Source of the DNA: Escherichia coli
Lineage (GTDB): Bacteria > Pseudomonadota > Gammaproteobacteria > Enterobacterales > Enterobacteriaceae
Length of the DNA stretch: 64,000 bases
NCBI RefSeq assembly: GCF_044324785.1
Contig: NZ_CP172127.1
Reading direction: 5' to 3' (one strand)
Shown: positions 1,369-49,926 of the stretch, one piece after another
Position numbering within the stretch: position 1 is the first letter of the stretch
How the letters are laid out: each line of letters starts with the position of its first letter
Program-made: the position numbers and the translations under genes
The notes under the pieces: model-generated
Databases searched by the model: none
Seen by the model: only the letters and a program-made list of their open reading frames with translations
Told to the model about the DNA's origin: nothing

Positions 1369-1992
1369 TTAATCCAGTTGCGTAATATCAAAAGCGGCGC
1401 GGTCGATCACCGCAATGATCTTTTTTATTTGTGCATCAGTGATATCGCTCTGGTTGACGCGTAAATCCAGCACCGCTTTAAAATTATCCAGCGCCCGCTT
1501 CATTTGCGGGTTCTGGCGCAGCGCTGCGCCAACGCAACGCGCTTTGATGCGTTCTTCAATCATCTTCACCTGTTCGCGGTTTTCTTCCAGCCACTGCGCG
1601 CCTTGTTCGGTCAACGCAATCTGCTTCTTACCACCTTCCTCTTCGCGGATGGTAATCAGCGACTGCTCCTGGAGAAAATCCAGCGTCGGGTAGATGACGC
1701 CCGGGCTTGGGGTGTAATTCCCCTGGGTCAGATTTTCAATCGCTTTAATCAACTCGTAACCGTGGCTGTCATCGCGCGAGAGAATATCCAGAATCACCAG
1801 ACGCAATTCACCGTGACCAAAGAAACGCTGCCGACGACCGCCGCCGCGACCGTGGCGACCACCGCAGCATTGACCGTGTTCATGCTGGTGACCGTGTCCG
1901 CAGTGCTCGTGTTCTGACTTCTCACCTTTGCAGCAGCCCTCATGGCGTGGCTGGCCTTCATGTTTACAACACCCTTCGTGATGATGGCTCAT
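1369..1992 (-). CDS. yqjI: PadR-family Ni/Fe-responsive repressor YqjI with His/Cys-rich N-terminus
   Basis: 207 aa ORF, ATG at 1992; N-terminus MSHHHEGCCKHEG...HEHCGHGHQHEH followed by PadR-like wHTH; divergent from yqjH. Confidence 0.88.
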   Translation of the reverse strand: MSHHHEGCCKHEGQPRHEGCCKGEKSEHEHCGHGHQHEHGQCCGGRHGRGGGRRQRFFGHGELRLVILDILSRDDSHGYELIKAIENLTQGNYTPSPGVIYPTLDFLQEQSLITIREEEGGKKQIALTEQGAQWLEENREQVKMIEERIKARCVGAALRQNPQMKRALDNFKAVLDLRVNQSDITDAQIKKIIAVIDRAAFDITQLD

Positions 1993-2010
1993 ATCAGCCT
2001 CCTTTTGCTT

Positions 2011-2247
2011 AATTAGATATATCTAATTTATATCTGATATGAGCATTACTGCAAGTACAAAAATGATTTTTAAACGTGAATACACCTCACATCCAGGCCG
2101 GATAATACGTTCATGCCGCATCCGACAGCCTTGCTACGACGCTGAATGTCTTCTCATACTTCAGATATATCAGTTCTACAAATCGCTTGCATTTATCATG
2201 ATTAACAATCATTATCATTTGCGAAATTTATTTAGATATATCTGATT
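2011..2247. promoter_or_regulatory. yqjI-yqjH divergent control region: repeated AGATATATCT palindromes (2011-2028, 2162-2173, 2232-2247) and a Fur-box-like site (2195-2219)
   Basis: Perfect 18-bp palindrome AATTAGATATATCTAATT at 2011-2028; near-copy TTAGATATATCTGATT at 2232-2247; ATCATGATTAACAATCATTATCATT resembles the Fur consensus GATAATGATAATCATTATC. Confidence 0.6.
2093..2126. repeat. REP-like palindromic element
   Basis: caggccggataatacgttcatgccgcatccgac matches the E. coli REP consensus in inverted orientation. Confidence 0.5.
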
Positions 2248-2268
2248 ACTATCACGAAGGCGATAACA

Positions 2269-3033
2269 ATGAATAACTCCCCCCGCTACCCGCAGCGCGT
2301 TCGCAATGATCTGCGCTTCCGTGAACTGACTGTGCTACGCGTTGAGCGTATTAGCGCCGGTTTTCAGCGCATTGTCCTTGGCGGCGAGGCGCTGGACGGT
2401 TTTACATCGCGCGGCTTTGACGATCACAGCAAACTCTTCTTTCCTCAATCTGATGCTCACTTTGTGCCGCCAACGGTAACGGAAGAGGGTATCGTCTGGC
2501 CGGAAGGACCACGCCCACCGTCGCGTGACTATACGCCGCTGTATGACGAACTACGCCATGAACTGGCGATTGATTTCTTTATTCACGAAGGTGGCGTCGC
2601 CAGCAGCTGGGCAATGCAGGCGCAACCGGGCGATAAACTCACGGTGGCAGGTCCGCGAGGTTCGCTGGTGGTGCCAGAGGATTACGCGTATCAGCTGTAT
2701 GTCTGCGATGAATCCGGAATGCCCGCACTGCGCCGCCGCCTGGAAACGTTGAGCAAACTTGCCGTTAAACCGCAAGTTAGCGCGCTGGTTAGCGTGCGGG
2801 ATAACGCCTGCCAGGATTATCTCGCGCACCTTGATGGTTTTAATATCGAATGGCTGGCACATGATGAGCAGGCAGTAGATGCGCGTCTGGCGCAGATGCA
2901 AATCCCTGCCGATGATTACTTCATCTGGATAACCGGCGAAGGCAAAGTCGTTAAGAATTTAAGCCGCCGCTTTGAAGCGGAACAGTATGATCCACAGCGG
3001 GTACGTGCAGCGGCTTACTGGCACGCAAAGTAA
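2269..3033 (+). CDS. yqjH: NADPH-dependent ferric-siderophore reductase (siderophore-interacting protein)
   Basis: 254 aa ORF, ATG at 2269; FAD-binding siderophore-interacting family; Fur box and YqjI-type palindromes upstream. Confidence 0.9.
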   Translation: MNNSPRYPQRVRNDLRFRELTVLRVERISAGFQRIVLGGEALDGFTSRGFDDHSKLFFPQSDAHFVPPTVTEEGIVWPEGPRPPSRDYTPLYDELRHELAIDFFIHEGGVASSWAMQAQPGDKLTVAGPRGSLVVPEDYAYQLYVCDESGMPALRRRLETLSKLAVKPQVSALVSVRDNACQDYLAHLDGFNIEWLAHDEQAVDARLAQMQIPADDYFIWITGEGKVVKNLSRRFEAEQYDPQRVRAAAYWHAK

Positions 3034-34167: not shown

Positions 34168-35649
34168 TCAGTTACGGAAAGGGTTATGACCGTTACTGGT
34201 GGTAGTGCGTGCGGATGTTTGCTGAACGACGGGTGCCGGGCTATCAGGCGCATAACCATCAGCAATAGCATTCTGTTCCGGCGTTTGCGGGGCAACGTTT
34301 TCCGGATTAGTGGAAACCGGTTTGCTCAGCGCATTGTTCAGTGCCAGCAGATCCTGCTCGTTCAACGTACCCAGAGCTGATTTAATATTCAACTGGTTAA
34401 TCAGGTAGTTATAACGCGCATTCGCCAGCTCTTGCTTGGCGTTGTACAGCGTGGTGGTCGCATCTAACACATCAACGATGGTACGCGTACCGACCGAGTA
34501 GCCCGCTTCCATCGCGTCTAATGAGCTTTGAGCGGAAACTACGGCTTGTTTGTAGGCGTTAATACTACTGATAGAAGCATTAATGTTGTTGAAGGAGGAA
34601 CGTACGGTTTGCACGACGCTACGATGCGCGCTTTCCAGTTGCTCGCTGGCACCAACAAAGTTGTACTGTGCCTGTTTCACCTGCGAGTTAACCATTCCGC
34701 CCTGATAAATCGGCAGCGAGAAGCTCAGGCCAACTTTGTTCTGGCCCATATTGCTATCGTCATACTGGGTACCCGCGGCACCACGGGTTTTCGAACCGCT
34801 ATAAGAGGTGTCAGAAATCCCGGTAGAAGCCGTTAAATCCAGAGTCGGTAAGTGACCATCCTGCGCCTGGCGAATTTGCTCGCGCGCCAGGTCCTGGCTC
34901 AAGCGTGCCTGTAACAGCGACAGGTTGCGTTTTTCGGCTTCTTTCAGCAGCGCGTTAACCGGCTGCGGTTTGTCGGTTTTAAAGTTTTCAACATTCAGCG
35001 CCGCCAGTTCCGGATAGTAGTTACCGGTGATCTGGCGCAGCTGCTCTACCGCGTTATCAAGGTTATTACGTGCGGTCACTTCGTTCGCCAGCACGGTATC
35101 GTACTGCGCGCGGGCGTTCTGCACGTCGGTGATCGCTACCAGGCCCACGTTAAAACGTTGGGTGGTTTGATCTAATTGACGGTAGATCGCTTCTTTTTGT
35201 GCCTGTGTATAGGAAAGAACGTCAATAGCATTCAACACGTTGAAATAAGCGGTCGCGGTGTTGAGGATCAAGGTTTGCTGATCGGTCTGATACGTGACGT
35301 CCTGAATCCCTGCTGCTTTTTCCTGCAGCGTTAACGCACGCCATTTCGACATATCAAAAATGGATTGAGTTAACTGCAGGGACGCACTGGTCGCGTTAGA
35401 GTTGATGCCGTTCGCGTCGCGGTAGCCGTTGCTATAGGTGTAATCTGCACCTAAACCTAGCTGTGGCAGTAATGGACTGCGCGCTTCATTAATTTTTTCA
35501 AAGGCAGCATCACGATCGGCGGCAGACTTACGCAATTCCGGGTTACTAAGGCGTGCTTGCTGATAAACTTGCATCAGGTTCTCGGCCTGGCTCAACGAAC
35601 TGAACCCAGAAAGGCTCAGGCCGATAAGAATGGGGAGCAATTTCTTCAT
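34168..35649 (-). CDS. tolC: Outer membrane channel TolC
   Basis: 493 aa from MKKLLPILIGLSLSGFSSLSQAENLMQVYQQARLSNPELRKS... Confidence 0.98.
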   Translation of the reverse strand: MKKLLPILIGLSLSGFSSLSQAENLMQVYQQARLSNPELRKSAADRDAAFEKINEARSPLLPQLGLGADYTYSNGYRDANGINSNATSASLQLTQSIFDMSKWRALTLQEKAAGIQDVTYQTDQQTLILNTATAYFNVLNAIDVLSYTQAQKEAIYRQLDQTTQRFNVGLVAITDVQNARAQYDTVLANEVTARNNLDNAVEQLRQITGNYYPELAALNVENFKTDKPQPVNALLKEAEKRNLSLLQARLSQDLAREQIRQAQDGHLPTLDLTASTGISDTSYSGSKTRGAAGTQYDDSNMGQNKVGLSFSLPIYQGGMVNSQVKQAQYNFVGASEQLESAHRSVVQTVRSSFNNINASISSINAYKQAVVSAQSSLDAMEAGYSVGTRTIVDVLDATTTLYNAKQELANARYNYLINQLNIKSALGTLNEQDLLALNNALSKPVSTNPENVAPQTPEQNAIADGYAPDSPAPVVQQTSARTTTSNGHNPFRN

Positions 35650-48736: not shown

Positions 48737-49216
48737 ATGTCAAATATCATATACTTATCAATTAAAGGAAAAACACAAGGTTTGATCTCTGAGGGCTGTG
48801 GTTCGTATGCATCTATTGGTAATAAATATCAAATAAATCATGTGGATGAAATTTTTGTTTTACAGTTCGACCATTCTTTAAGTCGAGAATATAATGTAGT
48901 GCATCATCCCATAAAATTTTACAAGCCAATAGATAAATCCTCTCCTTTATTAAATGCTGCTCTTTCTGAAAATGAAGAGTTATCAGCTGTATTTAATTTT
49001 TATAGAATTAATTCTGGCGGTTGTATTGAAAGGTTTTACACAATTGAATTGCAAGGGGCATATTTATCGAATATTCTGACTTGTTATCCACACTCAATTA
49101 CACATGCGGGTAATCAACCGGAAGAGGTCATTGTTCTTAATTATAAAAATATAACATGGAAGCACCATATCGCGAGTACGGAATCATATAGCTGTTGGGA
49201 AGAAAGGATTTTTTAA
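48737..49216 (+). CDS. hcp: Hcp-family protein (type VI secretion tube protein), orphan copy
   Basis: 159 aa; conserved Hcp blocks: N-terminal Y-x-I-K-G...QGLI-x-GC, FVLQFDH, HHPIKFYKPIDKSSPLLNAAL, VIVLNYKNITWKH; RBS ggag 7 nt upstream; AT-rich context. Confidence 0.85.
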   Translation: MSNIIYLSIKGKTQGLISEGCGSYASIGNKYQINHVDEIFVLQFDHSLSREYNVVHHPIKFYKPIDKSSPLLNAALSENEELSAVFNFYRINSGGCIERFYTIELQGAYLSNILTCYPHSITHAGNQPEEVIVLNYKNITWKHHIASTESYSCWEERIF

Positions 49217-49218
49217 AT

Positions 49219-49926
49219 ATGAAAAGCGATCTCACTATAAAAAATAGATATTGTACAATTCCACAAACGAAGTTCCGTAAATGGGATGAAATGGACGTTT
49301 TACTCTGGAAGTTAGGAAAAAATGATTCGCGTCGCCGTTCAGGAGTATATTATTTAAATGCTTATAAAGATGCATATGTACAATATAATAGGGACAAAAT
49401 AATTAAACATGCATATGCCGCAGGGATTCGTCCAGAGTTATTGGGCGGCGTGGCCTGGATTGAGTCAGGAGGTATGCCTGAAAATTATAAGTTTCAGATA
49501 TATGAAACAAAAAGAATGATCGGATCGTTAGATATGCCTGAAAATAAAACATCATTTGGCTCAATGGGTATACAAATACGAACCGCAGCGATTACTCTAG
49601 GCCTTGACCCTTCAGAATTAACTACCAGAAATCAGTTAGAGTTAGCGACATGCCTGATGGAAGATGATTTTACCTTTAAAATTGCTGCTACTCATTTAAG
49701 AGATCTTGCCCTTTTTGATTATCCCTCTTCGGCAACACTGTATATGACGAATGAGCAGTATATTATGGCTGGTATTAGATATAATCGTGGTGTTGAACGA
49801 GATTTGGGTTTTTTTATTTATTTAATTAATAATTTGCCTGCGCGTGATACAGATGATTATAAATTCATCTCTTATGGTATGAGGTTGTTAGAGATTAGAG
49901 AACATATCAAAAAATTGATTAATTAG
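49219..49926 (+). CDS. Hypothetical protein with lytic-transglycosylase/lysozyme-like motifs; candidate Hcp-associated effector
   Basis: 235 aa from ATG 49219 (RBS ggaagaaagga); motifs WIESGG, SMGIQI and AGIRYNRG with spacing like the ES / GLMQ / AYNxG motifs of family-1 lytic transglycosylases; start 3 nt after the hcp stop. Confidence 0.6.
   Translation: MKSDLTIKNRYCTIPQTKFRKWDEMDVLLWKLGKNDSRRRSGVYYLNAYKDAYVQYNRDKIIKHAYAAGIRPELLGGVAWIESGGMPENYKFQIYETKRMIGSLDMPENKTSFGSMGIQIRTAAITLGLDPSELTTRNQLELATCLMEDDFTFKIAATHLRDLALFDYPSSATLYMTNEQYIMAGIRYNRGVERDLGFFIYLINNLPARDTDDYKFISYGMRLLEIREHIKKLIN

Follow-up and report, generated by a model that had tools for sequence, protein, structure and literature searches.

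The 276-bp spacer at positions 1993-2268, which separates two divergent open reading frames as read from the sequence of the 64-kb window (the whole stretch of DNA analysed, 64,000 nucleotides), is very probably the control region through which NfeR and Fur regulate nfeR (yqjI) and nfeF (yqjH). Such a region is already known, since it has been published for Escherichia coli K-12 as the NfeR (YqjI)/Fur region, and the same operators are present in the window. A sequence-only reading of this DNA had proposed dual control by Fur and YqjI with autoregulation of yqjI; the identities of both genes, the literature, the identity to K-12 and the conservation of the elements in six genera are all consistent with this proposal and argue for it. 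The locus can be considered a textbook-level case in which Fur, responding to iron, and NfeR, responding to nickel, converge on one promoter for the release of iron from siderophores. To the published description the present analysis adds a fixed operator geometry across six genera, a half-site designated IIb, the polymorphism of a third core, variable REP and indel haplotypes, and a site matching the IHF consensus in Citrobacter and Raoultella. The elements, their clustering, the identity to K-12, the conservation and the geometry were computed here, and repression by NfeR, its relief by nickel and control by Fur are taken from the literature.

The gene to the left of the spacer, nfeR, occupies nucleotides 1369-1992 on the minus strand (207 amino acids, start codon CAT at 1990-1992) and encodes a PadR-family repressor with a PadR winged-helix domain (Pfam, E value 2.5e-15) and a His/Cys-rich N-terminal extension, the protein starting MSHHHEGCCKHEGQPRHEGCC. 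A search for a solved NfeR structure returned none, the nearest solved relatives being PadR proteins. The gene to the right, nfeF, occupies 2269-3033 on the plus strand (254 amino acids, ATG at 2269) and encodes an NADPH-dependent ferric-siderophore reductase that includes the FAD_binding_9 (7.7e-37) and SIP (1.6e-25) domains of siderophore-interacting reductases (Pfam). The NfeR(YqjI)/NfeF(YqjH) divergon is recognized by a PadR regulator divergent from a SIP-type reductase and by an inverted-repeat operator at both promoters, those of yqjH and yqjI, and both features were found in the window. Megablast analysis of the gene pair gave matches in 5423 of 5426 complete E. coli genomes, with at least 80% query coverage in 5421, and among the matches listed the pair is labelled nfeR and nfeF by RefSeq. 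The closest match was strain N3 (99.3% identity), most others ranging from 95 to 99%. At the protein level NfeR and NfeF are 99% and 98% identical to their K-12 counterparts, and the neighbouring genes, aer on one side and mug and rpoD on the other, agree with the K-12 map.

The genes, their divergent arrangement and the position of a REP element are the same as in the K-12 yqjH-yqjI region (Wang, Wu & Outten 2011; Wang et al. 2014, J Bacteriol). Its spacer measures 287 bp, against 276 bp in the window, as a result of an 11-bp indel just to the right of the REP, and these two lengths define a window-type and a K-12-type haplotype of the E. coli spacer. Identity to K-12 is base for base at both ends, one of them comprising the yqjI ribosome-binding site, site IIa and site IIb, and the other running from ATATCAGTTCTACAAATCGCTTGCATTT through the Fur box and site I to the yqjH ribosome-binding site. 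The central stretch of about 120 bp has diverged from K-12 by many substitutions. It includes a decayed REP (GCCGGATAATACGTTCATGCCGCATCCGAC, 2097-2126), which is intergenic, resembles the consensus GCCGGATAAGGCGTTCACGCCGCATCCGGC and shares 26 of 30 bases with the intact REP found at this position in K-12; some of its stem positions carry mutations. In a comparison of 32 loci the REP was seen only in those of Escherichia. Shortening the K-12 spacer or mutating the REP is said to weaken repression.

The 9-mer AGATATATC gives five strand matches at three sites in the whole 64-kb window, and all three sites are located in the nfeR/nfeF spacer; in 100 shuffles of the window the mean number of matches was 0.10 and the maximum was 1. 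The site closest to nfeR, site IIa (AATTAGATATATCTAATT, 2011-2028), is a perfect 18-bp palindrome with a 14-bp core at 2013-2026 and is a putative NfeR operator. The sequence-only reading had described this palindrome at 19 bp from the yqjI start codon; the palindrome is there and the gap is 18 nt. Site IIa lies over the -10/+1 region of the yqjI promoter and has the same bases in K-12 when the spacers are aligned. Its outermost base varies within E. coli (GATTAG in A3024). The near-identical copy that had been noted about 22 bp upstream of yqjH, here site I (TTAGATATATCTGATT, 2232-2247), was likewise located, 21 nt before the yqjH ATG. Its 14-bp core (2232-2245) matches the palindrome at 13 of 14 positions, making it a second putative NfeR operator, and its sequence is the same in K-12 and unchanged in all 12 of the 12 Escherichia sequences sampled. 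A scan of the 64-kb window with the 14-mer TTAGATATATCTAA gave zero mismatches at 2013 and one at 2232.

Three additional candidates in the window, at 35345, 49494 and 49528, were rejected as NfeR sites, each having three mismatches to the 14-mer, which is the level expected by chance (1.23 expected). The matches at 49494 and 49528 bear no relation to NfeR and are a consequence of a repeated segment in an ORF on the plus strand (49195-49926), where a peptide-coding segment is duplicated (GGTATGCCTGAAAATTATAAG and AGATATGCCTGAAAATAAAAC, within 49470-49545). A census of sites I and II in complete E. coli genomes by means of short megablast queries gave only partial information, since the 28-nt seed is interrupted by SNPs in the flanks, and it was clean only for the alleles of the third core, the Fur block and a rare SNP allele of site IIa. 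The latter, a core substitution that generates TTAGATGTATCTAA, was found in 31 of 5426 genomes, including GPEC1210 and O145:H28 strains.

A fourth element that had gone unmentioned in the sequence-only reading is site IIb (TATATCTGA, 2030-2038), a direct half-site at a distance of one helical turn (11 bp) from the half of site IIa that it matches. It repeats the right half of site IIa on the same face of the helix and overlaps the putative -10 hexamer of yqjI. In K-12, YqjI reportedly gives footprints over site I and over an extended site II. The extent of this second footprint fits the structure composed of IIa and IIb, and the conserved half-site probably accounts for the extension of the NfeR footprint at the yqjI promoter.

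A consensus scan of the spacer for sigma-70 promoters detected no site with at least 9 of 12 matches, and the promoters were for this reason placed on the basis of conservation and of PMC3946193. The putative yqjI promoter (2027-2054, minus strand) consists of the -35 hexamer TTGCAG (2054-2049), a 16-nt spacer and the -10 hexamer TATAAA (2032-2027), and its transcript would start near position 2020, within site IIa. This placement is that of the K-12 nfeR promoter, which has been predicted as TTGCAA-16-TATAAA under an RpoD holoenzyme gSELEX peak (PMC3946193), and TGCAAG or GCAAG, corresponding to a CTTGC -35 motif on the minus strand, is kept on the yqjI side across genera. For yqjH, the preferred placement (2186-2215, plus strand) includes a -35 element (C)TTGCAT at 2186-2192, a 17-nt spacer and the -10 hexamer CATTAT at 2210-2215. 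An alternative, TTAACA-18-TTTTAT, has been put forward (PMC3946193), which in the window corresponds to TTAACA at 2202-2207, 18 nt, and ATTTAT at 2226-2231. With either placement the core promoter would be covered by the Fur array and site I would be located at +1 or within approximately the first 25 nt of the transcript. A terminator scan of the spacer gave none at the threshold used.

The location of the palindromes 18 and 21 nt from the start codons, where they are probably at least partly transcribed, would be compatible with a function in RNA, as hairpins in the 5' leaders that affect mRNA stability or translation. An 11-nt perfect inverted repeat (GCTCATATCAG and CTGATATGAGC, 1987-1997 and 2034-2044), which flanks site II on both sides and takes in the yqjI start codon, could be taken in the same sense. 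However, the minimum-energy folds of both putative leaders, weak at -4.6 and -8.4 kcal/mol, skip the palindromes, and the outer symmetry of the palindromes is broken between genera without compensation (TTAGATATATCGTA in Citrobacter and Enterobacter), which together make a role at the RNA level unlikely. As for the 11-nt repeat, its upstream arm falls in the putative promoter spacer and would be left untranscribed from the predicted start, so that an mRNA hairpin is unlikely; the repeat is imperfect in E. albertii and lacks conservation outside Escherichia. We consider a function of the palindromes in RNA extremely improbable and continue to regard them as putative operators bound by NfeR as DNA.

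The Fur-like box that had been indicated at 2195-2219, over the yqjH promoter, is present (ATCATGATTAACAATCATTATCATT) and forms part of a larger cluster at 2185-2222, an array of overlapping GATAAT-type hexamers that would extend over the -35/-10 region of yqjH. Across this cluster, matches of 11 to 14 out of 19 positions to the consensus GATAATGATAATCATTATC overlap with register shifts of 3 and 6 bp, as would be expected for an array of Fur hexamers. The two top registers, 2198-2216 (13/19, plus strand) and 2204-2222 (14/19, minus strand), are 6 bp apart, and the second of them is tied for second place among approximately 128,000 positions in the window. The right half of the box, CAATCATTATC, shares 10 of 11 positions with the consensus; with a weak left half, no single register exceeds 14/19. 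The sequence AATCATTATCAT within the box showed no variation across all 32 loci from six genera, and an exact 28-mer over the Fur/-10 block was found in 5388 of the 5426 E. coli genomes. Overlapping registers shifted by 3 and 6 bp across a promoter are also found in the Fur boxes of other enterobacterial genes for iron release and siderophore utilisation, from which the nfeF box differs in sharing its promoter with a second, metal-specific repressor and in the weakness of its left half. A second Fur box at the conserved TGATTTTTAAACG motif (2062-2079) was considered and rejected, given that it is 83% related to the Fur box as an inverted repeat, yet scores below 11/19 against the consensus.

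The palindromes themselves have some resemblance to Fur sites: their GATA...TATC arrangement recalls Fur hexamers and they score 12/19 against the Fur consensus, so that NfeR and Fur sites cannot be fully separated by sequence alone. In addition, PMC8249747 describes the nfeF/nfeR spacer as the sole target selected by PepA from the K-12 genome in six cycles of gSELEX. On these grounds the palindromes could be bound mainly by Fur or PepA, with NfeR acting elsewhere. What speaks against this is that a palindrome with the GATATATC core accompanies nfeR in 32 of 32 loci, on the promoter of nfeR itself, as is usual for a local repressor that regulates its own gene, and that 2185-2222 holds a distinct Fur array with a much better match. 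The literature also gives the inverted repeats to YqjI, as far as the titles of the YqjI papers indicate. We think it very unlikely that Fur or PepA is the main ligand of the palindromes, and assign them to NfeR. In the K-12 studies the inverted repeats are reportedly attributed to YqjI, and both sites are said to be needed for full repression of either promoter.

The conservation of these elements was assessed in 32 loci from species-representative genomes of Escherichia, Citrobacter, Enterobacter, Lelliottia, Superficieibacter and Raoultella. The divergent nfeF-nfeR order is kept in all 31 of the 31 loci that have both genes. On the yqjI side, every one of the 32 loci includes a 14-mer with at least 11 of 14 matches to TTAGATATATCTAA and an intact GATATATC core, mostly in the form TT[AT]GATATATCTAA; on the yqjH side, TT[AC]GATATATC[GT]NN is found, again in 32 of 32, at a fixed distance from the -35 element. 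In the loci a -35 motif of the CTTG[CA] type precedes site I by 44-46 nt; for three Citrobacter loci the script settled on a CTTG further along, and the printed sequence shows the CTTGCA. The equivalent of site IIb, TATATCTAA or a close variant, is located at +11 in almost every one of the 32 loci, and in Enterobacter and Lelliottia a third unit at +22 results in three contiguous units with 11-bp spacing. The sequence between the conserved blocks showed no conservation across the 32 loci.

The distance between the centres of site II and site I varies widely: it is 217-230 bp in Escherichia, 172-185 bp in Citrobacter, 183 bp in Raoultella, 174 bp in Enterobacter sp. kpr-6, 166 bp in Superficieibacter, and 96-97 bp in the other Enterobacter and in Lelliottia. 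In E. coli the distances of the two haplotypes, 219 and 230 bp, correspond to 20.9 and 21.9 helical turns and so are one turn apart. Helical phasing of sites I and II was rejected as a conserved feature, as no phase is common to all genera over the range of 96-230 bp.

A perfect match to the IHF consensus WATCAANNNNTTR (for example AATCAATTAATTA) was observed at +63 from site IIa, on the minus strand, in 10 Citrobacter and Raoultella spacers, where a summed 0.5 would be expected by chance. Three further Citrobacter loci and Enterobacter sp. kpr-6 have versions with one mismatch at +62 or +63. In this comparison Escherichia has just the related TGATTTTTAAACG motif (2064-2076 in the window). The Citrobacter/Raoultella site might have an architectural role like the one that the REP is reported to have in E. 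coli.

The third core (CAGATATATCAG, 2162-2173) combines the GATATATC core with the half-site TCAGATA and is separated by 13 nt from the conserved yqjH -35 element downstream of it. The sequence-only reading had placed it on a par with the other two copies; the core is present, but equal status is not supported. It matches the 14-mer TTAGATATATCTAA at 10 of 14 positions, the fit being limited to the 8-bp core and one half-site, and is consequently better described as a core accompanied by one good half-site than as a complete third copy. It also differs between strains, being a perfect AGATATATC in the window and AGACATATC in K-12. By seed-based counts, the window-type allele (exact 28-mer) is carried by 2142 of 5426 E. 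coli genomes (about 39%) and the K-12-type allele by 2475 of 5426 (about 46%); the remaining genomes have other alleles, such as AGATGTTTC in one strain. Outside Escherichia its place is taken by (C)TATATCAAAAAA or by the more degenerate TGTATC, CTATC or GTATC, abutting the -35 element, and Citrobacter, Raoultella and Superficieibacter have a TATATC-type remnant at about the same position. This TATC-A-tract could be the remnant of a half-site or equally a promoter-proximal A-tract (UP-like) element. In view of its polymorphism and partial conservation, the third core was rated as a possible weak auxiliary site and not as an equal operator. It is the weakest of the elements and at most a candidate for a weak, dispensable auxiliary NfeR site just upstream of the nfeF -35.

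A more ambitious interpretation is that IIa, IIb, the third core and site I are all working NfeR contacts, that an NfeR oligomer loops the spacer, and that the third core provides lineage-specific tuning, with stronger repression in strains having the perfect AGATATATC allele. Several observations speak for it. The left half of the third core, TCAGATA, is the reverse complement of the right half of site I (11 nt, 100%), the position of the core close to the -35 element is shared by the TATATC-type remnants of the three other genera, Enterobacter has its three contiguous units at 11-bp spacing, and the 11-bp indel of E. coli leaves sites II and I separated by nearly the same fraction of a turn (20.9 and 21.9 turns). 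Furthermore, the title of the 2014 paper (Wang et al. 2014) states that the binding sites communicate. The third core, however, is far more variable than sites I and IIa, which are nearly invariant; the part of it that is conserved in other genera is largely an A-tract and equally possibly an UP element; and the distance between sites II and I has no helical phase common to all genera. We regard this interpretation as a tentative possibility only. Its most elaborate form holds that the four parts make up a looping array in which the third core, with at least three appreciable alleles, is a polymorphic tuning site, and that the helper of the loop has been exchanged in the course of evolution, an IHF site serving in Citrobacter and Raoultella, the REP in Escherichia, and neither in the contracted 97-bp, three-unit Enterobacter arrangement; this form we find unlikely. 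If such a four-part array did exist, E. coli lineages would differ in the tightness with which nickel and iron gate the reductase. The third core and the REP, both variable within E. coli, represent natural alleles for the published idea of communication between sites.

The regulatory behaviour of the two genes has been described in the literature. PMC7981267, citing Wang 2011 and 2014, states that NfeR represses nfeF and that nickel relieves the repression, and it reports that deletion of nfeR in K. pneumoniae raised nfeF expression 85-fold and that virulence without nfeR was lower in an insect model. PMC9501238 includes yqjH (nfeF) in the Fur regulon, RegulonDB-derived summaries in PMC6649764 give nickel and Fe2+ as effectors of YqjI, and the titles of Wang et al. 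2011 and 2014 refer to control by Fur and YqjI and to communicating YqjI sites in the yqjH-yqjI spacer.

A mechanism consistent with these reports and with the arrangement of the spacer can be proposed. The PadR-type winged-helix protein NfeR would bind the GATATATC-centred palindromes. On site IIa and the phased site IIb it would block the -10/+1 region of the nfeR promoter, resulting in autorepression, and on site I, which would coincide with the nfeF transcription start or immediately follow it, it would repress the reductase gene. Fur-Fe2+ would occupy the hexamer array covering the nfeF -35/-10 region. With both Fur and NfeR acting on the nfeF promoter, expression of nfeF would require both low iron and the release of NfeR. 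Nickel bound to the His/Cys-rich N-terminal region of NfeR would lower the affinity for DNA and derepress both genes. Occlusion as the mode of repression, the exact promoter hexamers and the start sites are predictions from the layout of the region.

The NfeR N-termini of Enterobacter, Lelliottia and Raoultella start MRHEHEGGGRR or MRHHHEEGRG and are devoid of the Cys-Cys motifs found at the N-termini of the Escherichia and Citrobacter proteins, and the operators are kept in these genera. Cys-poor N-termini together with conserved operators suggest that the nickel switch may not be universal, and metal sensing may differ between genera.

Among PadR-family systems, PadR-padC of Bacillus subtilis and LmrR-lmrCD of Lactococcus lactis resemble the NfeR system in combining a PadR domain with palindromic operators at the promoters of the regulator and of a neighbouring target. 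NfeR differs from these regulators in its His/Cys-rich metal-sensing extension and in responding, according to the literature, to nickel and not to phenolic acids or drugs, and its system has a phased half-site in addition to two operators separated by approximately 220 bp. NikR at nikA and RcnR at rcnA-rcnR also respond to nickel by way of palindromic or repeated operators, RcnR being autoregulated from a divergent spacer. NikR, a ribbon-helix-helix protein, and RcnR, a CsoR-like protein, belong to families other than that of the PadR protein NfeR and recognize other operator sequences; they tie nickel to its own import or export, while NfeR ties nickel stress to the acquisition of iron.

A 10-mer, ATCACGAAGG, is shared by the two transcripts. 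It is found at 1973-1982 (minus strand), where it corresponds to codons 4-7 of yqjI (His-His-Glu-Gly), and at 2251-2260 (plus strand), in the yqjH leader including the ribosome-binding site, and its presence in both transcripts is probably due to chance.
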